DNA of 64,000 nucleotides from Candidatus Omnitrophota bacterium (GTDB lineage: Bacteria > Omnitrophota > Gorgyraeia > Zapsychrales > JAKLDJ01). The notes under the pieces are model-generated. The model did not search any database. It saw nothing but the letters and a program-made list of their open reading frames with translations, and was not told where the DNA came from. The translations under genes were made by a program, and so were the position numbers. How positions within the stretch are numbered: the first letter of the stretch is position 1; each line of letters starts with the position of its first letter. The stretch is taken from NCBI GenBank assembly GCA_022703585.1, contig JAKLDJ010000006.1, positions 5,696-69,695 of the forward strand, given 5' to 3'. This document shows, in pieces, positions 1-10,305 of this stretch.

Positions 1-291
1 AAAGATATTCTCGCTTTCGTCAAACCTGATACTTTCTTTCGTTGCCGGTCTTAGAGTAGCCTTGCTTGGGATGAGCACATTTTGGATAGCTCCACTTCTC
101 CCGGCCCAAGAGAAGTTGAATTTTTCAGAAGCGGTGTCGATATGTTCACCCAGAGCCAAGCGCATCTTATCGATGTTGACCTTGCCTTCGGATATCGCTT
201 CCGGAAGAATCGCCTTGAGCTTTCCAAGCAACTCTGCCTTGATATCTGTGGATTCCCTGACAGCCTTTTGGGTTTTATTTTTCTTTGCCAT
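1..291 (-). CDS. Adenine-specific DNA methyltransferase, N-terminal part (type III Mod / type IIG-like); gene continues off the left edge
   Basis: Hand translation of the minus strand from ATG at 291-289 gives MAKKNKTQKAVRESTDIKAELLGKLKAILPEAISEGKVNIDKMRLALGEHIDTASEKFNFSWAGRSGAIQNVLIPSKATLRPATKESIRFDESENIF. The FxFxWxG(K/R) ... PSKxTL(K/R)P ... SENxF run matches the conserved N-terminus of N6-adenine RM methylases (Mod / PglX-like). It is absent from the ORF track because it is truncated by the window edge. Confidence 0.55.
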   Translation of the reverse strand, partial: MAKKNKTQKAVRESTDIKAELLGKLKAILPEAISEGKVNIDKMRLALGEHIDTASEKFNFSWAGRSGAIQNVLIPSKATLRPATKESIRFDESENIF

Positions 292-322
292 GTTTAGCCT
301 CTTTTTATGTTATGCAAATTGG

Positions 323-664
323 TCATAATTTCTTTGCTAATTTCTTGTATGATGCGTGATTTAGTGCGCCCCCGCAAGACGTTTCTTGAGCCTTTGTTAT
401 TAAAATTGACATGCGTCTATTCATCTTTAAGCTCTTTGGAGTAATTTTAATGCTTTTTATTGGTTCTCTTTTGCCTCTCTTGTGGTCGTTGATTTTTCGG
501 AGCAACGCTTGAAGCTCATCTTTGGCATATAGCCGATAATTATTAAAGGGATGCCGGTATGATTTGAGTTTGCCAGAGGAATCCCATCTCCTGAGCGTCA
601 TTTCAGAGACCCCCAGAAGTTCAGAGGCTTCTTTGATTGTTATATAATCGTCTATTTTCTTCAT
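323..664 (-). CDS. MerR/excisionase(Xis)-family helix-turn-helix DNA-binding protein
   Basis: ORF 323-682. The true ATG is at 664 (MKKIDDYITIKEASELLGVSEMTLRRWDSSGKL...YRLYAKDELQALL); the first in-frame start is a TTG. It has an N-terminal MerR-type HTH followed by a basic tail, and lies directly upstream of the methylase gene on the same strand. Confidence 0.6.
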   Translation of the reverse strand: MKKIDDYITIKEASELLGVSEMTLRRWDSSGKLKSYRHPFNNYRLYAKDELQALLRKINDHKRGKREPIKSIKITPKSLKMNRRMSILITKAQETSCGGALNHASYKKLAKKL

Positions 665-973
665 GTATATAACCTTTAACAAGATTATACACAGAAAAAA
701 ATAGAAATCAACACGAAGCGTCCTATCGTCTGTTCGTTATATTAAAATATCTTCATCCAAAACCATGGCGTTATCAGAAATAAAATTTCGCCTGAATCAA
801 GTGACCAGTCCCTGACCTAAGGCAGGACAAGAGTCGTTTATCATATTTTATATAGTGCTTAGCTTAGCAAGTCTGCCTCTCTCGCAGACTCTTTCGCTTT
901 CTCTTTGCTTACTCTTTATTAAAACCTTTGCGTTAGAGAAGCGAACGCTTATTTTAAGGAAAGAATATATTTA

Positions 974-1020
974 GGCATAGCAGAAGCGTAGGGGATAGCC
1001 TCAGCTATGCCTAATATATA
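974..1020 (-). terminator. Hairpin just downstream of the 1023-1364 gene (possible intrinsic terminator)
   Basis: Inverted repeat ttaggcatagc...gctatgcctaa followed by an A/T-rich run on the minus strand. Confidence 0.35.
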
Positions 1021-1022
1021 GT

Positions 1023-1364
1023 CTATTCTTGGATAAGCCGAGTGAAGTATTTAGTTTGGTTGCCAACGCCGGTTTTCTTGATGCCGACCATTGAACCGAA
1101 CGGATAACGTGCCATTTGCTCGGCCAAAATTCGACTGCCCCTGTCCCAACTCTGCCGGACGCCATTCGATTCAAAGATATAGCGCAGGCATTCACTTTTC
1201 CCACCGTCAAAACGATTTGGGATTTTCTCGACACCAAGAAATTTAACAATTTTCTCGGTATCGTCTGGAAGGGTGAAGAACTTTGAGTTTTTATTTATAA
1301 AATCATCGAAAATATCGCTACCGACACTCATAAATCCTCCTTGCGTTTTCAAGACGTTTTTCAT
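1023..1364 (-). CDS. Hypothetical small protein (gene D of the four-gene small-protein operon)
   Basis: ORF of 113 aa. The ATG at 1364 overlaps the stop of the upstream SpoVG-like gene (ATGA), and an alternative ATG at 1331 is preceded by AAGGAGG. I recognise no family. Confidence 0.5.
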   Translation of the reverse strand: MKNVLKTQGGFMSVGSDIFDDFINKNSKFFTLPDDTEKIVKFLGVEKIPNRFDGGKSECLRYIFESNGVRQSWDRGSRILAEQMARYPFGSMVGIKKTGVGNQTKYFTRLIQE

Positions 1365-1684
1365 TCATCCAGATAAGGCACGTAGTAGGTGCTTTCTGGG
1401 CCTCTCTTTGAGCCTTTGGCGATTTTGTCGATTTTATCGACTACTGCATTTGTTAGGTCAAGGGCTGTCTCTTTGTCGATAGGACAGAATGACTCGACCA
1501 TCAGGCCATGTGGTAATCTGATGACCGGATAGACTAATCGAAAACCTGACCCGTCAAGGCGTGTGAACACGCCTACTCCCTGAACTTTGAACCTGCCATC
1601 GATTACAAAGCTCGTGACGCCTACACGCCCCTTTTCATTTGGGGCGAGAGGGAAGAACTTGACCTCTTTCACTTCCACTTTCAT
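1361..1684 (-). CDS. SpoVG-like nucleic-acid-binding protein
   Basis: ATG at 1684 is preceded by GGAGGTGA at a 6-nt spacing; the ORF-track start at 1690 is a TTG. MKVEVKEVKFFPLAPNEKGRVGVTSFVIDGRFKVQGVGVFTRLDGSGFRLVYP resembles the SpoVG fold pattern (V..V..V...G...A.A.V.LD..F.V..I.V...G.F...P). Confidence 0.45.
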   Translation of the reverse strand: MKVEVKEVKFFPLAPNEKGRVGVTSFVIDGRFKVQGVGVFTRLDGSGFRLVYPVIRLPHGLMVESFCPIDKETALDLTNAVVDKIDKIAKGSKRGPESTYYVPYLDE

Positions 1685-1838
1685 TCTCAATCACCTCCTC
1701 AAACTCATTCCATTTGCGTAATAACCCGAAAAAGCGGCGCAAGCCAGAGCAGATTTCCGCTATTTCTTGAGGACTTAGCGGTCTGCCGTAGGCTTGCGCC
1801 CATTCCTCCTTCAGGTTATTTTTAGAATTTTTAGCCAT
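1635..1838 (-). CDS. Hypothetical small protein (gene B), uncertain
   Basis: ATG at 1838 (MAKNSKNNLKEEWAQAYGRPLSPQEIAEICSGLRRFFGLLRKWNEFEE...). It overlaps the SpoVG-like start by about 50 nt and has a weak RBS, so it may be spurious. Confidence 0.25.
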   Translation of the reverse strand: MAKNSKNNLKEEWAQAYGRPLSPQEIAEICSGLRRFFGLLRKWNEFEEVIENESGSERGQVLPSRPK

Positions 1839-1900
1839 TAAGAAACGTCGTATTGGACACCTTTGGTCACCCTCGCAGAAATAAGATAACCTAATAAATT

Positions 1901-2188
1901 TCAATCGGTTAATTTCTGCGGGTCGGATTTGAGATACTTTTCATACTTTGCCACAAAGTTCTCCATTTCATCCGTGGTAAACTGTAAAACAATAAAGGCC
2001 ATAAAGAGTAGTGAGTGGCCTTTGAGTGCCCAATACGGACGGCTTTGAGGCAGAAAACGAAACACCATGTGAAGCGTTTCTTCAACAAGATTCTGGCGCT
2101 CGGCAGGTATTATGAAATTAACCTGTGCAGGATTCTCGCCAGCATTTTGGAGAAGTTCTGATTTGATTCTTCTGTATAGTTCGCTCAT
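1901..2188 (-). CDS. Hypothetical protein (gene A, first gene of the small-protein operon)
   Basis: ATG at 2188 is preceded by AAAGGAGGTG at a 7-nt spacing (MSELYRRIKSELLQNAGENPAQVNFIIPAERQNLVEETL...). I recognise no family. Confidence 0.5.
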   Translation of the reverse strand: MSELYRRIKSELLQNAGENPAQVNFIIPAERQNLVEETLHMVFRFLPQSRPYWALKGHSLLFMAFIVLQFTTDEMENFVAKYEKYLKSDPQKLTD

Positions 2189-2505: not shown

Positions 2506-3324
2506 ATGAAAATGAAAAGTAAGATTTTAAGAAAACTTATCGACGTTGAAATTAGATTAGGTTTCCTTCACATCCCCGCCGCAGGAATCGATTTGTTCCC
2601 CGAGAAAAACACCAAAATAAACGCCCTTGTAGATGGGGAATCCCGTCAATTAACTTACAATGCCACACATAGAAGAATCTTTGGCCTTACAAAATGGTAT
2701 TCGGATTGTCATGTAAAGGTTGGCGATGAGATTGAAATCGAAAAAGCAGGCGAGGAATACAAGCTAATATTTAATGCCGGTAAACTCGCTGAAACGCCCT
2801 TAAAGGAAGCCGAGACCTTGATTGATATTTCCGGCTTATCATCTCAGGCAAAGGGCAATATCGTTGAGGAACGGGTCAAGGAGCTTATTCTTTTGCAGGG
2901 ACAAGGGCTTTTGAGCGTTTATAGGCCGGTGACGGATACTGAGGGCATCGATTTGATTGTGCTGAAAAGCGGGATGTTTCAGCCGTTATTCTTGCAGATA
3001 AAAGGGCGTTTTAATGTTCAGAAAACCGGATACTTTTTAATGGATATCAGCAAGAAGACATTTACGGTGCATCATTCATATTTTGTAGTAGGCGCTTACT
3101 TTAATCCTCGTGAAATGGAAATCGATGAGCATTTGTTATTTGTTCCGAGTGAAGAAGTCGTCAAAGCTCCCATCGTGAAGTCGAATGTGGGGGAACGATA
3201 CCGGATTGCGAATCATCTCAATATGGATTCCAAAGGCCGTTGGGCCCCGCATTTGATTAAGAAATCCGATTTGGCAAGTAAGTTGTTGGAAAAGTTTGAG
3301 GAAATAGGGAAATATATTAAATAG
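2506..3324 (+). CDS. Restriction-endonuclease-like protein: N-terminal B3/EcoRII-N-like DNA-binding domain fused to an Mrr-cat-like PD-(D/E)xK nuclease domain
   Basis: N-terminal half: IRLGFLHIPAAGIDLFPEKNTKINALVDGESRQLTYNATHRRIFGLTKWYSDCHVKVGDEIEIEK fits the B3-like pseudobarrel pattern (grLxIPk..a...fP.....i.l.D..G..w.f.y......r.vLt.GW..Fv....l..GD.v.F). C-terminal half: VTDTEGIDLIVLKSG...LFLQIKGRF resembles the Mrr_cat motif GIDxI...D...(Q/E)xK(R). Confidence 0.55.
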   Translation: MKMKSKILRKLIDVEIRLGFLHIPAAGIDLFPEKNTKINALVDGESRQLTYNATHRRIFGLTKWYSDCHVKVGDEIEIEKAGEEYKLIFNAGKLAETPLKEAETLIDISGLSSQAKGNIVEERVKELILLQGQGLLSVYRPVTDTEGIDLIVLKSGMFQPLFLQIKGRFNVQKTGYFLMDISKKTFTVHHSYFVVGAYFNPREMEIDEHLLFVPSEEVVKAPIVKSNVGERYRIANHLNMDSKGRWAPHLIKKSDLASKLLEKFEEIGKYIK

Positions 3325-3335
3325 GAAATTACTCA

Positions 3336-5057
3336 ATGATTGATTCAGTTGATTCGATATTAAAAGAAATAGAGAACACTTCTTTAGTTGAGCACCGGCA
3401 TCCGAATATTGAATTGAAATCCAGTTGGGATGTCGATTACGGAAGAAAAGTCTGTGGTCTTGCAAACAAAATCGGCTTCTCAAATGCTTGGCTTGTGATA
3501 GGCATGAAGGATGATGGAATTTTGGTAGGAAATAACGAGGCATGGGCTAAAAATTGTGAACAAGTAGTATCTCAACATGCCAACCAATTTCTGAATCCAA
3601 TTCAGGCGATTAAACAAATATCTTGTCATCAAATAAATCAATCTTGGATAGTCGTTATTCATGTTCAGCCGCCCGGTGCTGTTACATACTGGCAAGGCAT
3701 TCCTTACAAAGCTTCTGGCACAACTTTTGCCGCCATGATACCCGAAGAAATCATGCAGTTGACTGTATCTTTGCCCGGATTAGAAGATTTTTCCGCACAG
3801 GAATGGAAAGGGAGATGCGAAGCTTCTTTAGTCGCAGGTTTTGCAGAAACTGTCAGCACGAAACGCTCTGAGGCGCAATTTGTGGATTTATCGAAGAGAA
3901 CCGCCGATGATGTATTAACTCGTTTAGCAATTGTTGATAAAAATGTCGTTCGTATCTTGTTTGGAGATTTCAAATTTCGGATTGTTTATTACAATGATTC
4001 CAATGAGCCAGTTGAAAATTCTTCACAGCAAGGATTAATTCGCTTGCTGAGTAGCGAATTTATGCAATCAATTCAACGGTGGGGACTTAAAAATATTCAA
4101 ACAGAAAGTGGGGCGGAGATAACTTTAGAGTCTTACCCATCTAAAGCACTGCGGGAAGCTTTGGCCAACACGGTTGCGCATTGCGCTTATTTTGAAAGGC
4201 AAGGAGAGGTGGTTGTAGAAGTGTATCCCGCAAAGTTATCCATAAGTAATCTTTGTTTGCCTGAATCAGCGCATTTTGCTAATAAATGGTTTTCAAGAAG
4301 CAGAAATACCGTTAATCGTTTGTTGATGGAAACCTTGAGACTCGGCGGTTATGTTGATGAGTTAGGGAGAGGCAAGAATCTTATTTTCTGTGAAAGTATT
4401 AAGGCGGGATTAAAACCTCCCATTGTTGAAATTGAAAAAGCCGGACAATACAGCCGATGGAGATTGCAATTATTTGGAGCTTCCCGTGACCCAATCCAAT
4501 TAAAACTACTTCAACGGATTAAAGATTTATATAAGGACGAGTATAAAGCAATGGTTGCTTATGCTCTTGTTCTTTGGAGCAATTTACCTGTTTCAAGAAT
4601 TTCTCAATTTATCGATGGTGAATCAAGAGCATATTTTGAAGAAATTCTTCAAGATATTGATGGCCCGGTATTCTTTTATCAGAAAGAAGATAAACTTATC
4701 CTACATCGTTGGGTTAGGGTCTTGATGGAAGAAGGGAAGGATGCAAAGTCATTTACACTTGCGGAGGAAGAAGGGTTGAGGAATTTTGCTTATGAAATGT
4801 GCACAAAATATGAGCACGGATATATTACTCCTAAGGAATTGAGACGATTAGCGCATTTAGGCGAAAGCAACTCTGAGCAACAATTAAGCTCTGAATTGTT
4901 AAGTAAATGGCGGAAAGAAGGACATGTAGAATTTCTGAGGCGGGGGAAATACCGATTCAAAGAGCCGGTAAAACCACCGGAGGCTTGGTCAGCTCTCCTT
5001 GATAGGTTATTAAAAGATTCAACAAGTAGTGCATTAGGAAATACGGCCAATGAATAA
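3336..5057 (+). CDS. Schlafen-like AlbA_2 domain + HATPase_c_4 (RecG-C-terminal-like) + C-terminal winged-helix-like extension protein
   Basis: N-terminus: EHRHPNIELKSSWDV...VCGLANKIGFSNAWLVIGMKDDGILVG...VVIHVQPPGAVTYWQGIPYKASGTTFAAMIPEEIMQL matches the AlbA_2 (PF04326-type) pattern. Middle: ALREALANTVAHCAYFERQGEVVVEVYPAKLSISN...RNTVNRLLMETLRLGGYVDELGRGKNLIFCESIKAGLKPPIVE matches the HATPase_c_4 (PF13749-type) pattern. It starts 12 bp after the nuclease gene, so the two are probably one operon. Confidence 0.7.
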   Translation: MIDSVDSILKEIENTSLVEHRHPNIELKSSWDVDYGRKVCGLANKIGFSNAWLVIGMKDDGILVGNNEAWAKNCEQVVSQHANQFLNPIQAIKQISCHQINQSWIVVIHVQPPGAVTYWQGIPYKASGTTFAAMIPEEIMQLTVSLPGLEDFSAQEWKGRCEASLVAGFAETVSTKRSEAQFVDLSKRTADDVLTRLAIVDKNVVRILFGDFKFRIVYYNDSNEPVENSSQQGLIRLLSSEFMQSIQRWGLKNIQTESGAEITLESYPSKALREALANTVAHCAYFERQGEVVVEVYPAKLSISNLCLPESAHFANKWFSRSRNTVNRLLMETLRLGGYVDELGRGKNLIFCESIKAGLKPPIVEIEKAGQYSRWRLQLFGASRDPIQLKLLQRIKDLYKDEYKAMVAYALVLWSNLPVSRISQFIDGESRAYFEEILQDIDGPVFFYQKEDKLILHRWVRVLMEEGKDAKSFTLAEEEGLRNFAYEMCTKYEHGYITPKELRRLAHLGESNSEQQLSSELLSKWRKEGHVEFLRRGKYRFKEPVKPPEAWSALLDRLLKDSTSSALGNTANE

Positions 5058-5350: not shown

Positions 5351-5460
5351 TTCCTCTGCGTTAAGAGGTACCCAGTACCCGAAGGGTGCGTTCGCCGGGA
5401 GCGAAGCGACCAGCACTTGTTACCCGGAGGGTAGAACAAGTGAGCCCTCGCGGGGGAGTT

Positions 5461-5506: not shown

Positions 5507-5625
5507 TCCTTACGAGACGAAGAACCTGTCCGAAGGACGGGTTCGCTAGCGATCACGCCAAGGGCGGGGGAGCAGTCCCGAGGCGCAAAGCGACGAGGGA
5601 AGCCCTCGCGGGGGAGTCAAGTGAA

Positions 5626-5683: not shown

Positions 5684-6049
5684 CTACTTTTTCACTTTCT
5701 GTTCGTCACTCAAGAAGTGAGTCTGCACTCCTCTTTTAACGTATTCGGGCTGAATAACTGAGCCGTAGTTTTCGGGATTCGGAATCGGGCAGGTGACGAT
5801 GTCCCATACACCGGAAGCGCCGCGGGCTACTCCCCAAAACAGGCCTTTAAAAAGACCGACAACGATGCCGATACCGGCATTTTTGCTTTCCTTCCATTCG
5901 GTGTCGATATTCTGCGGTATTTCGAGTACAGCCGAAAGTACATTTGTTGCTCCGCGGGCCAATTTATCCTTCGGCTCACCGGCAGACGCGGATGTTACCA
6001 GACTGAAACACAACGCACCACACACCACCAACGCTACTAGAATCTTCAT
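5684..6049 (-). CDS. Small secreted protein, exosortase-system-associated TIGR04073-like family
   Basis: Signal peptide MKILVALVVCGALCFSLVTSASA, then KLARGATNVLSAVLEIPQNI...GIVVGLFKG...GVARGASGVWDIVTCP, which matches the R-G-x-N...E-I-P pattern I recall for that family. Confidence 0.45.
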   Translation of the reverse strand: MKILVALVVCGALCFSLVTSASAGEPKDKLARGATNVLSAVLEIPQNIDTEWKESKNAGIGIVVGLFKGLFWGVARGASGVWDIVTCPIPNPENYGSVIQPEYVKRGVQTHFLSDEQKVKK

Positions 6050-7372: not shown

Positions 7373-9169
7373 ATGCACGCCTTAACCCTGCTTACTGTCA
7401 GCTTGCTCGTATTTGCTCTAGCCTACCGGTTTTACGCGAAATTCATTATTACAAAAGTCCTTGTTTTTGACGACAAAAGACCGACGCCTGCCCATACCTT
7501 GCGCGACGGGCAGGATTATCACCCTACCAATAAATATGTTCTTTTTGGCCATCATTTTGCGGCAATTTCCGGGGCGGGGCCATTAGTCGGCCCGGTCCTG
7601 GCGGCGCAATTCGGATTTCTCCCCGGGTTTTTATGGATATTGATCGGCGCGGTCCTGGGAGGGGCGGTGCACGACATGGTGATTCTTTTTGCCTCGGTGA
7701 GGACTAAGGGGCTTTCATTAACCAGGCTGGCCCGAAAAAGTATTGGGCCGACGGCAGGGTTGGTGACAGGGATAGCCATCCTTTTTATCATTATTACGGC
7801 CTTGGCTGGGCTTGCCTTGGTCGTGGTCAATGCCCTTAATGAAAGTGCCTGGGCAACTTTTACCATCGTGATGACGATCCCGGCGGCTTTCTTGGTTGCC
7901 TTGTATATGTATAAACTACGCCCGGGAAAAATTATCGAGGCCTCGCTGCTGGGGATGGTTGTTGTTATGGCGGGGGTTGTATTCGGTGAGCCGTTATCAA
8001 GGTCGGGATTTGGGCAGTATTTCTTGCTTTCTAAACCCGCGCTTTCTGTTGCCTTGCCGGTGTACGGCTGTATTGCCTCAATCCTGCCGGTGTGGCTTTT
8101 GCTGTGCCCGCGCGATTATTTAAGTTCCTACATGAAAATCGGGACCATCGGTCTTTTAGCGGTTGGAATAGTCATTGTTAACCCTCAGCTTAAAATGCCG
8201 GCGGTGACAAGCTTCATACACGGCGGCGGGCCGATTATTCCGGGTAAGGTTTGGCCGTTTGTGTGCATAACCATTGCCTGCGGGGCGATTAGCGGCTTTC
8301 ACAGCTTGATCAGCTCGGGGACAACTCCCAAGATGATTAGCCGGGAATCGGAAATACGGATGATCGGTTTCGGGGCGATGCTTGTCGAGGCGGTTGTTTC
8401 TATCATGGCGTTGATTGCGGCTACCGTGCTTTTGCCGGGGGATTATTTTGCTATTAATGTGCCGGTGGAGGTATTTCATAAATTGGGATTAAGCACGGTG
8501 CATCTTGCGGAAATCGAAAAAATGACAGGCGAGGCCTTGGCCGGGCGCACCGGAGGCGCTGTTTCGTTGGCCGCGGGGATGTCGGTTATTTTATCGTCAA
8601 TCCCGGGAATGAAGCATCTCATGGGATATTGGTATCATTTTGCAATCATGTTTGAGGCGCTGTTTATTTTGACAACGGTGGATACCGGCACGCGGGTGGC
8701 CCGTTATATCCTTCAAGAACTTGCCAAGCTGGCAAGGCCCCGCTGGCAAGGGGCAAGCAGTTTGCCCGGGGTTATCACAACCAGCATTTTAATCAGTTTT
8801 CTCTGGGGATATTTAGTCTATAACGGAGATATTTCCACTATCTGGCCGATGTTTGGGGTGGCCAACCAGCTTTTGGCTACTCTGGCGCTATTAGTGGGGA
8901 CAATGTATATCCTCAAGCATTCCAAGCGATGGAGCTATGGATTGATCACATTTTTGCCGGCGTTATTTATGTTTGCAACAACCGTCGTTGCGGGAATATT
9001 AAATATTACGGGAAATTACTTACCCAAACACACCTTCCAGGGGAATCTCAATGCGGCCCTTTCGGGAATCATGATTATTCTCGTGGTTATCGTATTTCTT
9101 GAAACCTTAAAAAAGATGTATAGGCTGCGGATAACAGGCCTAGGCGTACCGAAAATAAAAGCAGCGTAA
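7373..9169 (+). CDS. cstA: Carbon starvation protein A (peptide transporter CstA family)
   Basis: FGHHFAAISGAGPLVGPVLAAQFGFLPGFLWILIGAVLGGAVHDMVILFASVR and the overall 598-aa polytopic membrane protein are typical of CstA. Confidence 0.9.
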   Translation: MHALTLLTVSLLVFALAYRFYAKFIITKVLVFDDKRPTPAHTLRDGQDYHPTNKYVLFGHHFAAISGAGPLVGPVLAAQFGFLPGFLWILIGAVLGGAVHDMVILFASVRTKGLSLTRLARKSIGPTAGLVTGIAILFIIITALAGLALVVVNALNESAWATFTIVMTIPAAFLVALYMYKLRPGKIIEASLLGMVVVMAGVVFGEPLSRSGFGQYFLLSKPALSVALPVYGCIASILPVWLLLCPRDYLSSYMKIGTIGLLAVGIVIVNPQLKMPAVTSFIHGGGPIIPGKVWPFVCITIACGAISGFHSLISSGTTPKMISRESEIRMIGFGAMLVEAVVSIMALIAATVLLPGDYFAINVPVEVFHKLGLSTVHLAEIEKMTGEALAGRTGGAVSLAAGMSVILSSIPGMKHLMGYWYHFAIMFEALFILTTVDTGTRVARYILQELAKLARPRWQGASSLPGVITTSILISFLWGYLVYNGDISTIWPMFGVANQLLATLALLVGTMYILKHSKRWSYGLITFLPALFMFATTVVAGILNITGNYLPKHTFQGNLNAALSGIMIILVVIVFLETLKKMYRLRITGLGVPKIKAA

Positions 9170-9183
9170 TCGAGAGTATTCGC

Positions 9184-10305
9184 ATGGAAAAAACGGATAT
9201 TGCGATCATAGGGGCGGGTGCCGTCGGGTTAGCGGTAGCTTTCCGGCTCTCGGAATTCTATAAAGATATTTTTATCATTGAAAGGAATTCCTCTTTCGGG
9301 CAGGAGACGAGCTCCCGCAACAGTGAAGTGATTCACGGCGGGATGTATTATCCTCCGGATTCCCTTAAAAAGAAAACATGTATTGAAGGAAGGCGTTTGT
9401 TGTATCAGTATTGCCGGGAAAACGATATTCCCCATAAGAAAGTCGGAAAATTGATCGTGGCGATTGATCCGGATGAAATCCGGGATTTAGAGGCCCTTTT
9501 TAAACAGGGTCAGGAAAACGGCGTGGAGGGTTTAAAACTTCTTTCGAAAGAGGAGATTAAGAAGATCGAACCGAACATAAGGGCCGAGGCGGCGATTTAT
9601 TCGCCCGAAACAGGCATTATTGACTCCCATAGTTTTATGAAAAATCTTGTTTTCCGGTTCGAGCGTAACAATGGATTTATCGTTTATAATTCCGAAGTCA
9701 CCGGTATCGATAAAACAAAAGAAGGATTTGAAATGACGCTTAAGAGTGCGCAGGAAGGAGAGCTTAAACTTGCGGCTCGTGTTGTCATTAATGCGGCGGG
9801 TTTGAATTCTGATAAAGTTGCCCGCATGGCCGGTTTGATGAAGGATGAATATACGCTTAAATATTGCAAGGGCGATTACTTTCGCTCGAACCAACGAAAG
9901 GCAAAATTCATCAACCACCTTATTTATCCGGTGCCGGTTAAAGACCATGCGGGGCTTGGGGTTCATGCGACCCTGGATTTGGCCGGGGGTTTGCGTTTTG
10001 GGCCCGATACGGAATACGTGAAAGAAATTTATTATGATATCGATCCCAAAAAAGGAAAATCTTTTTATGAAAGTATCCGCCGATTTCTGCCGTTTATGGA
10101 AGAGGGAGACTTAAGCCCTGATACGGCGGGCATGCGGCCGAAACTGCAGGGGGAGGGCGAGGGTTTTCGCGATTTCATCATTAAAGAGGAGTCCGCTAAT
10201 CACCTGCCAGGGCTTATCAATCTTATCGGTATTGAATCTCCCGGGCTCACGGGTGCTCTTTCAATAGGGGGGATGGTAAAGGGAATGGTTGACGCATTGT
10301 GTTAG
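9184..10305 (+). CDS. FAD-dependent oxidoreductase, L-2-hydroxyglutarate oxidase/dehydrogenase-like
   Basis: DIAIIGAGAVGLAVA Rossmann motif and the ERNSSFGQETSSRNSEVIHGGMYYP segment, characteristic of the LhgO/L2HGDH subgroup of the DAO family. Confidence 0.65.
   Translation: MEKTDIAIIGAGAVGLAVAFRLSEFYKDIFIIERNSSFGQETSSRNSEVIHGGMYYPPDSLKKKTCIEGRRLLYQYCRENDIPHKKVGKLIVAIDPDEIRDLEALFKQGQENGVEGLKLLSKEEIKKIEPNIRAEAAIYSPETGIIDSHSFMKNLVFRFERNNGFIVYNSEVTGIDKTKEGFEMTLKSAQEGELKLAARVVINAAGLNSDKVARMAGLMKDEYTLKYCKGDYFRSNQRKAKFINHLIYPVPVKDHAGLGVHATLDLAGGLRFGPDTEYVKEIYYDIDPKKGKSFYESIRRFLPFMEEGDLSPDTAGMRPKLQGEGEGFRDFIIKEESANHLPGLINLIGIESPGLTGALSIGGMVKGMVDALC

Follow-up and report, generated by a model that had tools for sequence, protein, structure and literature searches.

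Near the start of a 64,000-nt stretch of DNA from a Candidatus Omnitrophota bacterium (assembly GCA_022703585.1, contig JAKLDJ010000006.1, positions 5,696–69,695 of the forward strand; hereafter the window), four small open reading frames (ORFs) follow one another on the minus strand from position 2188 to position 1023. We refer to them, in this order, as genes A, B, C and D. An earlier note on this DNA had recognised all four and had read them as a compact operon with one SpoVG-like member, perhaps an anti-defence, toxin-antitoxin or regulatory module tied to the restriction-modification (R-M) genes beside it. The question raised by this locus is whether such small genes serve their defence neighbours or something else. 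From the analyses presented here, we consider it probable that the co-directional core operon of an integrative island begins with B, C and D, and that these genes serve the life cycle of the element and not the neighbouring defence genes. The organism name is the NCBI label on proteins identical to those of the window.

The start of the window falls within an 11.1-kb integrative island, and the small genes lie in the middle of it. Three public contigs (L001–L003) that are 100% identical to the window prolong it leftwards. On the minus strand the gene order is A-B-C-D, a helix-turn-helix (HTH) gene, the Mod and Res genes of a type III R-M system, a large serine recombinase (LSR) and tRNA-Asn. 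The LSR (L002 15907-17412, 501 aa) combines the Pfam domains Resolvase (6e-22), Recombinase (4e-13) and Zn_ribbon_recom (2e-9), and its 3' end overlaps the tRNA-Asn gene (L002 17373-17446), which is on the opposite strand. The target segment is duplicated at both borders of the island, since the far border (5442-5458, plus strand) is a 17-nt exact direct repeat of the tRNA-Asn 3' end, 11,146 bp from the tRNA, where 0 matches would be expected by chance; the GC content climbs there from ~0.40 to 0.45-0.49. With the recombinase at one end and the tRNA copy at the other, the small-gene cluster lies inside an integrative island, and the view that it had been acquired horizontally is upheld.

We then asked what the small genes travel with. 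When three LSRs were used as queries in a metagenome scan, at least 392 relatives were retrieved; 80 loci were kept (L013–L092), and 83 loci were compared. In 48 of the 83, a tRNA gene lies no more than 150 nt from the LSR 3' end, and in every case it is encoded on the other strand (Asn 19, Pro 9, Arg 8, Gln 8, Asp 2 and Glu 2), and many of the loci without a tRNA at this position stop at a contig edge there. Because the LSR gene runs with its 3' end into, or directly up to, the 3' end of a tRNA gene on the other strand, the attachment site would lie inside the integrase gene or at its end. The same core occupies a like site in unrelated genomes, that is, tRNA-Asn in L012, in L007 and in 17 more loci, and other tRNA genes in 29. 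We also sought direct repeats at the far border in other loci and, beyond the window island, found one within the available flank only in L040.

Diverged homologues of B, C and D are present in conserved order on other contigs, and consequently these three are not chance ORFs. In a single-cell genome of another member of the Omnitrophota (L012), the products of B, C and D (35%, 37% and 57% identity) are encoded 250 nt before an LSR of 64% identity that overlaps tRNA-Asn (LSR to tRNA, 1142-2672), with neither an HTH gene nor R-M genes. In L014, B-C-D is located upstream of an orthologous LSR (~55% identity) and no ORF of Mod or Res size lies between them. In Legionella adelaidensis (L007; NZ_LR134433, 244549-256794), a 59-aa B-like gene overlaps a SpoVG gene; after these come, in this order, the genes for an HTH_17/zinc-ribbon protein and a tyrosine recombinase, a collinear LSR (30% identity) and finally tRNA-Asn (LSR with tRNA, 7913-9458). 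Parts of the set occur in L005 (the tail of B, with C and D) and in L006 (B and C). Since B-C-D co-varies with the LSR rather than with R-M genes in L012, L014 and Legionella, we placed it in the core of the element and not in its defence cargo. The anti-defence or toxin-antitoxin tie to the R-M neighbours that had been proposed is not borne out by this distribution, nor did any of the small proteins match a toxin, antitoxin or defence profile. Of the three roles on offer a regulatory module comes closest, although such a module would belong to the mobile element and not to the defence genes.

Gene B (1635-1838, minus strand) encodes a protein of 67 aa with homologues in L012, L014, L006 and L007, in addition to the tail in L005. 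Although its ORF reaches back to a TTG at 1904, translation probably begins at ATG 1838, because every homologue begins at that position. The family profile is coherent, about 50 aa long, with the motif T..xWQPRxxRxLSDEDAREIxxNxxxFFxLLxEW, and was iterated on six-frame ORFs of the 83 LSR loci. B-like proteins were found in 37 of them, in 35 cases upstream of the LSR and on the same strand, and in nine loci the match lies no more than ~115 nt from the LSR start. Among the 61 loci whose sequence extends 1 kb or more upstream, 34 have B. This is the kind of linkage looked for in a recombination directionality factor (RDF), the excision cofactor of a serine integrase; for the other candidates, the HTH gene adjoins the LSR in L078 and L019, and C and D are linked to it only in a sub-clade. 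The B protein had no Pfam or PDB match, even when the profile was used, and no match to HTH or AlpA/Xis profiles.

Upstream of B we found indications of a separate transcriptional start. With ATG 1838 as the start codon, 62 nt separate A from B, and a TTGA overlap of the two genes would exist only if B began at TTG 1904. No Shine-Dalgarno (SD) sequence precedes B in any element or homologue examined. The motif TTATTAGGTWAT is located exactly 57 nt 5' of the ATG of B in both the window (1884-1895) and L012 (12-27), with TGAC at an equal offset after it, and was not found in L005, L006 or L014. This shared motif suggests that B has a promoter of its own, and the TTATTAGGTWAT site is likely to be a promoter or operator for B-C-D that overlaps the end of A. 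We also considered the ATTAGG motif as a general operator and rejected it, as it is common to the window and L012 only. The placement of the predicted promoter or operator at the very end of A leaves that gene outside the conserved unit. The genes are compact, as the earlier note described them, but a four-gene operon is doubtful, since A is not part of the conserved unit and B may have its own promoter.

The 3' end of B overlaps C by 50 nt, and the ribosome-binding site of C lies within B. This overlap replaces the ATGA junction formerly assigned to B and C, because the TGA at the start of C is out of frame for B. Gene C is in the +1 frame relative to B in all seven elements compared, and in four of the seven its GGAGG site is built from the conserved E-E-V codons of B. 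A frameshift fusion of B and C was considered and rejected: C has its own ATG, with an SD inside B in those four elements, and translational coupling is a simpler explanation. Having its GGAGG site embedded in B, C would be made together with B.

Gene A (1901-2188, minus strand; 95 aa) presents a different picture. It has a perfect AAAGGAGGTG SD at ideal spacing, so that the strong ribosome-binding site ascribed to it is real; its codon-usage score is the best of the six frames in its own frame and comparable to those of B-D, and it was predicted by three independent gene callers. Judging from these signals, A is probably expressed. Its homologues are limited to identical copies (in a word search of 5.8 billion proteins, tblastn against phages and plasmids, and the 83 related LSR loci), and it has no Pfam, PHROG, NCBIfam, PADLOC or PDB match. 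One might argue that some of these ORFs, and A in particular, are not genes at all, as A has no diverged homologue and ~12% of the window ORFs of 80-130 aa score as well on codon usage. This seems to us quite doubtful, given the SD, the frame preference and the three gene callers in the case of A and, in the case of B, C and D, conservation at the protein level across diverged elements. Conservation elsewhere, the safeguard against spurious ORFs named in the earlier note, is thus found for B, C and D but not for A. Gene A is an unrelated orphan acquired upstream, outside the conserved B-C-D unit.

Early and leading-region genes of plasmids and phages protect these elements on entry. One or more of the A-D proteins might likewise be early inhibitors of host restriction or immunity that shield the element as it enters a cell. 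They are small, fast-evolving and without a family (for A, B and D it remains true that no named family is matched), they come first in an operon of a mobile element with defence cargo, A is an orphan with a strong SD, and sister elements with LSRs of 55-64% identity share no more than 26-40% in B and C. Anti-defence genes, however, are usually patchy accessory genes, whereas the B family is broadly conserved and position-locked to the LSR across many phyla-level contexts, and SpoVG-like genes recur beside replication genes. Neither A nor D had a match when 50,697 phage and 72,556 plasmid records were searched; D had none in IMG/VR either, and there was no PHROG or PADLOC match. Known anti-defence families or an early-region context were not encountered for A-D in the general PHROG and Pfam libraries and in the phage and plasmid records, no dedicated anti-defence library having been searched. 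On balance we consider an anti-defence function of these genes unlikely, and return to B-C-D as part of the element core.

Gene C (1361-1684, minus strand; 107 aa) encodes a divergent SpoVG-fold protein of a mobile-element-associated subfamily. By itself it matches the Pfam SpoVG family (PF04026) with 17.5 bits (E 0.0047) over model positions 2-79 of 82, the gathering cutoff being 29.6 bits. An exhaustive HMMER search of 1.84 billion representatives retrieved 174 relatives of ~100 aa. PF04026 is matched by 61 of 68 members of the C family (best E 1.2e-12), and the family profile matches the three SpoVG sequences of the PDB (E 1.7e-9 to 2.5e-8). The AlphaFold2 (AF2) model built on an 87-sequence alignment reached a pLDDT of 92.2 and was used in place of a single-sequence model (pLDDT 53), which was set aside. 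When the model was compared with the PDB using Foldseek, the top ten matches were all SpoVG chains (probability 1.00, TM-score 0.63-0.82). The best viral matches of C are phage proteins annotated 'putative SpoVG'. A word-indexed protein search with C returned only copies of itself, and PDB sequence searches with A, C and D singly gave nothing significant. The SpoVG-like nature of C, proposed in the earlier note, is therefore borne out by the fold of the predicted model and, through its relatives and their profile, at the family level, with a score of its own below the Pfam cutoff and ~20% identity to characterised SpoVG.

This does not make C an ordinary housekeeping gene. It sits in a tRNA-Asn island and its relatives are found beside recombinases and replication genes; C is a divergent mobile-element relative and not the housekeeping SpoVG orthologue, and A, B and D match no named family, housekeeping or other. 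An invariant Arg49 is specific to the C family. We also observed that C (1361-1390) and its closest relatives (L005, L004, L006 and L012) have an aromatic-acidic C-terminal tail (YYVPYLDE, YYEPILDE, YYEPYQD, LYLDD), which resembles the protein-recruiting tails of proteins of the single-stranded DNA-binding (SSB) type and is missing from more distant SpoVG-like proteins. SpoVG proteins bind RNA as well as single-stranded and double-stranded DNA (PMC4959528, PMC11086051), and by analogy we infer that C binds nucleic acid. PF04026 is reported to be enriched in mobile elements of gut Firmicutes (PMC6907783). In the literature we found no described role for mobile-element SpoVG proteins, nor any link between SpoVG and serine recombinases.

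Gene D (1023-1331, minus strand) encodes a basic protein (pI 9.1) of 102 aa from a rare family with many invariant Arg, Lys and aromatic residues. Its ORF extends to an ATG at 1364, and the ATGA at 1364-1361 that had been taken as the C/D junction does exist. This is probably not the start of D, however. The second ATG (1331) corresponds to the start codon of all four homologues, which have AGGAGG-type SDs, and in the window ATG 1331 has an AAGGAGG SD where ATG 1364 has none; ATG 1331 is most likely the start codon, and the gap between C and D is then 29 nt. The overlapping junctions described for this cluster are probably reduced, with the 62-nt gap between A and B, to the overlap of B with C. 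D is the best conserved of B, C and D, at 61-64% identity in P0003 and P0004, 57% in L012 and 51% in L014. It always directly follows C, and the C-D order is kept in five elements. No match was found in Pfam, PHROG, the PDB (including with the profile), phage or plasmid records, IMG/VR or a JGI metagenome collection, and a word-indexed search yielded two relatives on short contigs. A resemblance to EcoRV (Pfam E 0.033) was rejected, since the match is mostly in the unconserved N-terminal extension and is gone in the 102-aa form and in the homologues.

Three nucleotides after the stop codon of D there is a long, near-perfect inverted repeat (966-1020, minus strand), and the predicted fold of region 850-1040 is more stable than shuffled sequences (z = -4.6). 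L005 (~784-833), L012 (~902-973) and L014 (~5835-5915) each have an equivalent long stem after D, although its sequence differs. We regard the 966-1020 repeat as a candidate terminator, protein-binding site or origin-like site. A second, small hairpin, AGTCTGC...GCAGACT, followed by TTGCTAAGC, is located at 870-891 (minus strand), and its sequence is partly conserved with L005 and L012. Searches of Rfam around the repeat after D and the terminators at the island end returned only sub-threshold hairpin look-alikes.

The tight succession of C and the basic D protein, in an order kept in five elements, could also be expected of a toxin-antitoxin or addiction module stabilising the island, in which D, for example, would be the toxin and the upstream genes would encode antitoxins; the genes are small, compact and overlapping, and they are carried by an island. 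Pfam, NCBIfam and PADLOC gave no toxin or antitoxin domain in any of A-D, and the fold of C is that of nucleic-acid-binding SpoVG, not a known antitoxin fold. Moreover, B stands alone beside the LSR in many loci, and elsewhere has replication genes in the place of C-D, which is a poor fit to a fixed toxin-antitoxin pair. Such a module is, in our judgement, very improbable.

What occupies the interval between B and the LSR in related elements is informative for C and D. In L015 it holds a CHC2/Toprim primase, in L016 and L059 homologous proteins of ~680 aa, and in L023 and L054 a helicase-like AAA_25 ATPase; a SpoVG-like gene with D takes this place in the window, L012 and L014, and a small HTH gene stands just before the LSR in six loci. 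Outside the LSR set, SpoVG-like genes were found directly 5' of an AAA_25 ATPase (L010), of an HTH_36 winged-helix protein (L006) and of a P-loop protein without a Pfam match (L011), and one is present in a phage-like contig (L008). As C and D fill the slot of primase or helicase genes in sister elements, a role in replication or maintenance is likely. IMG/VR contains few relatives of the LSR, and the sole one with a B, C or D match (L093) is the same contig as L052; together with the lack of a D match in IMG/VR and the JGI collection, this indicates that the element is not a recognised prophage type.

The same observations could be pushed further, to a pure replication module in which C and D are a minimal pair of initiator and single-stranded DNA-binding protein, the repeat after D is the origin of the circle, B is an operon regulator only, and the HTH_17 protein is the excision factor. 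The shared slot and the neighbourhoods of the SpoVG-like genes would agree with this, as would the structurally conserved long inverted repeat after D in four of four elements and the excisionase-family domain of the HTH protein, which adjoins the LSR in relatives. Neither C nor D, however, is similar to a known initiator, SSB or primase; one D homologue gave an E of 0.32 against an SSB PHROG, a value that we regard as noise. The inverted repeat might be no more than a terminator, and replication of the excised element is itself hypothetical. We retain this possibility, although we do not think it the probable one.

Our preferred reading, B-C-D as the head of the element's core operon, can be put as follows. 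The core order would be B-C-D, hairpin, HTH, an inserted type III Mod-Res pair, LSR and tRNA-Asn. B would be transcribed from its own promoter, in keeping with its lack of an SD and the conserved motif 57 nt before its ATG, and C would be translated from the GGAGG within the E-E-V codons of B. The B protein may be a family-wide partner of the recombinase, either as a directionality (excision) cofactor or as a regulator of the operon. C may bind nucleic acid, with the conserved hairpin after D as a candidate target, and C and D together may support or control the replication or maintenance of the excised circle. For all three proteins we infer these roles from position and fold. Structure varies widely among the excision cofactors of serine integrases, and replication proteins often serve as such in a second role (PMC12286644; bioRxiv 10.1101/2024.08.21.608926). 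As they have no common fold and some of them moonlight, B, C, D and the HTH_17 protein are all legitimate candidates.

Several observations weigh against this reading. B is absent from ~45% of the LSR loci whose sequence extends 1 kb or more upstream, and consequently this family of recombinases does not depend on it throughout. Only five of the 37 B-positive loci have C after B, and D is known from five elements only. No replication or transfer gene can be recognised in the 11-kb element, so that a replication role for C-D rests on position. The HTH_17 protein is a more conventional candidate for the excision factor than B. In addition, early operons of mobile elements can carry anti-defence genes, and such a role is possible for D or A.

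A more specific version can be proposed tentatively. B, alone or with C and D, may be an unrecognised factor that sets the direction of recombination, or otherwise controls it, in a large and phylogenetically widespread clade of serine integrases that target tRNA 3' ends and whose coding sequence extends into the attachment site. In the Omnitrophota sub-clade, C and D would have replaced the primase/helicase module, and would act on the hairpin 3' of D to couple excision to the maintenance of the circle. Of this combination we are much less confident than of the place of B-C-D in the core operon.

The genes downstream of D complete the core. The next gene (323-682, minus strand) encodes a predicted DNA-binding protein of the MerR/HTH_17 'excisionase family' of 119 aa, or 113 aa from its ATG (Pfam MerR 3.4e-11, HTH_17 6.6e-10; TIGR01764 excisionase domain 1.6e-8); it also matches the PADLOC profile 'mad1' (E 3e-14). 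From its domains and neighbourhood we take it as a core gene of the element and the conventional candidate for the excision factor. The type III methyltransferase gene, mod, begins at 322 and continues beyond the window (1-322, minus strand; N6_N4_Mtase, 629 aa, from Pfam on the extending contigs), so the HTH-methylase pair named in the earlier note is real. Res lies outside the window (ResIII/DEAD/RE_endonuc in Pfam, 876 aa). Mod overlaps Res, and Res overlaps the LSR, by 4 nt each, the LSR start overlapping the Res stop. From this 4-nt overlap the recombinase appears to be translationally coupled to the restriction subunit. In L078 and L019, homologues of the HTH gene (58-67% identity) are directly 5' of the LSR, which indicates that Mod-Res was inserted between two core genes (L002 11021-17412).

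On the other side of the cluster, an AT-rich divergent intergenic region (2189-2505) separates A from a gene pair on the plus strand (2506-5057) that encodes a 272-aa protein and a 573-aa protein with AlbA_2, HATPase_c_4 and AbiEi_4 domains. A promoter scan of 2189-2505 gave one weak minus-strand site (2366-2339), not above chance expectation. The 272-aa protein had been called a nuclease, but the PDDEXK_5 match on which this call rests is non-significant (Pfam E 0.066). Neither protein has a counterpart among the 83 related LSR loci. The pair is probably cargo of the island and possibly a two-gene defence system.

The far border itself repeats the tRNA-Asn 3' end more than once. Besides the exact repeat there is one that agrees in 16 of 17 nt (5600-5616), again with none expected by chance, and copies of this kind suggest leftovers of successive insertions at one site. 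A third, partial copy may be present at 5563-5576, and a strong hairpin follows each of the two full copies. At the other end, contig L003 (17380-19039; sample ERZ27257456) diverges from the island sequence 7 nt into the tRNA position; its recombinase ORF extends to 637 aa, it has no tRNA, and its tail past the divergence has no match in the window or in L002. We considered whether L003 represents the excised circle and rejected this, because its tail does not match the other end of the island; it may be a second tandem element or an alternative junction. No circular junction of the excised island was found among these contigs, as the L003 variant junction does not fit the other island end.

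Some related loci have features of their own. L014 has two different LSRs (2626-4077 and 7606-9123) with B-C-D between them, and this arrangement suggests nested or tandem elements. In the Legionella locus the cargo upstream comprises AbiEi/AbiEii and an Eco57I-type methylase, and the record, a 365-kb 'plasmid 24', carries uvrB and further housekeeping genes beside the tRNA-Asn island. Beside the L012 island (2801-4828) is a gene for a 675-aa subunit of a 2-oxoacid:ferredoxin oxidoreductase with an apparent intein-like insertion, noticed by eye in the translation.

Small integrative islands that sit at a tRNA gene and bring a restriction system with them are familiar, and overall this is one of them. 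What it adds is, first, the B family, small proteins without a database entry whose genes are in tight linkage with those of a large family of serine integrases that target tRNA genes. The discovery of excision cofactors is the main obstacle to the reversible use of such integrases in genome engineering, and B is a concrete and testable candidate; as a possible cofactor of this integrase clade, the B family is the most useful lead from this work. Second, the mobile-element SpoVG-fold proteins acquire a defined genetic context, coupled to B and beside recombination and replication genes. Finally, the locus illustrates that small genes beside an R-M system can belong to the machinery of the carrier element, the R-M genes here being wedged into the core operon between the HTH gene and the integrase.

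Comparison with known systems is most direct for C. SpoVG of Bacillus subtilis (2IA9) and Staphylococcus epidermidis (2I9X/2I9Z) and the model of C agree in fold and size, with an N-terminal beta-sheet and a C-terminal helix (TM-score 0.63-0.82, rmsd ~2-3 Å), and share the structural Pro and Gly residues of the '...P-x-K-x-x-x-x-G ... H-P-I' core. C differs from them in its low identity of ~20%, its score below the Pfam gathering cutoff, the invariant Arg49 and the YYVPYLDE tail. Its setting also differs from that of chromosomal spoVG, since it is encoded in a mobile island and appears translationally coupled to a small upstream gene.

As a whole, the island can be compared with tycheposons, which were defined in Prochlorococcus and have tyrosine recombinases in 97% of cases and an LSR in a minority (Hackl et al., bioRxiv 10.1101/2020.12.28.424599). 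The set of B, a SpoVG-like gene and D is not described in that paper (10.1101/2020.12.28.424599). Both kinds of element integrate site-specifically at tRNA 3' ends and have variable cargo, in this case R-M, beside a modular core of integrase, small genes for excision or regulation and, in the sister elements, a primase or helicase. A tRNA-targeted integrase with cargo is present here, whereas a tyrosine recombinase and a module of primase, helicase or polymerase are not; a tycheposon-like replication module (primase/helicase) is found in the sister elements and not in this island, which has no recognisable replication gene and uses a serine recombinase whose gene itself overlaps the tRNA.

Small regulators of the Xis/AlpA type head the primase operon of P4-like islands and of islands resembling phage-inducible chromosomal islands (PICIs). 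B is like them in being the small first gene of a co-directional operon that leads on to genes for replication, and in belonging to an island that has an integrase and carries defence genes as cargo. It is unlike them in that it matches no HTH or AlpA/Xis profile, and its island differs from the P4 and PICI type in having a serine and not a tyrosine recombinase, with the integrase downstream and in the same orientation.

The RDFs of large serine integrases (SPbeta SprB, TP901-1 Orf7, phiRv1 Xis, TG1 gp25 and Bxb1 gp47) are small or moonlighting proteins whose genes share an element with the integrase gene and frequently lie among genes for replication (PMC12286644; 10.1101/2024.08.21.608926). 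B differs from them in that we found no sequence similarity to any known RDF, and in being missing from many LSR loci. Where B would fit the role of an RDF is in its tight linkage to the LSR on the same strand.

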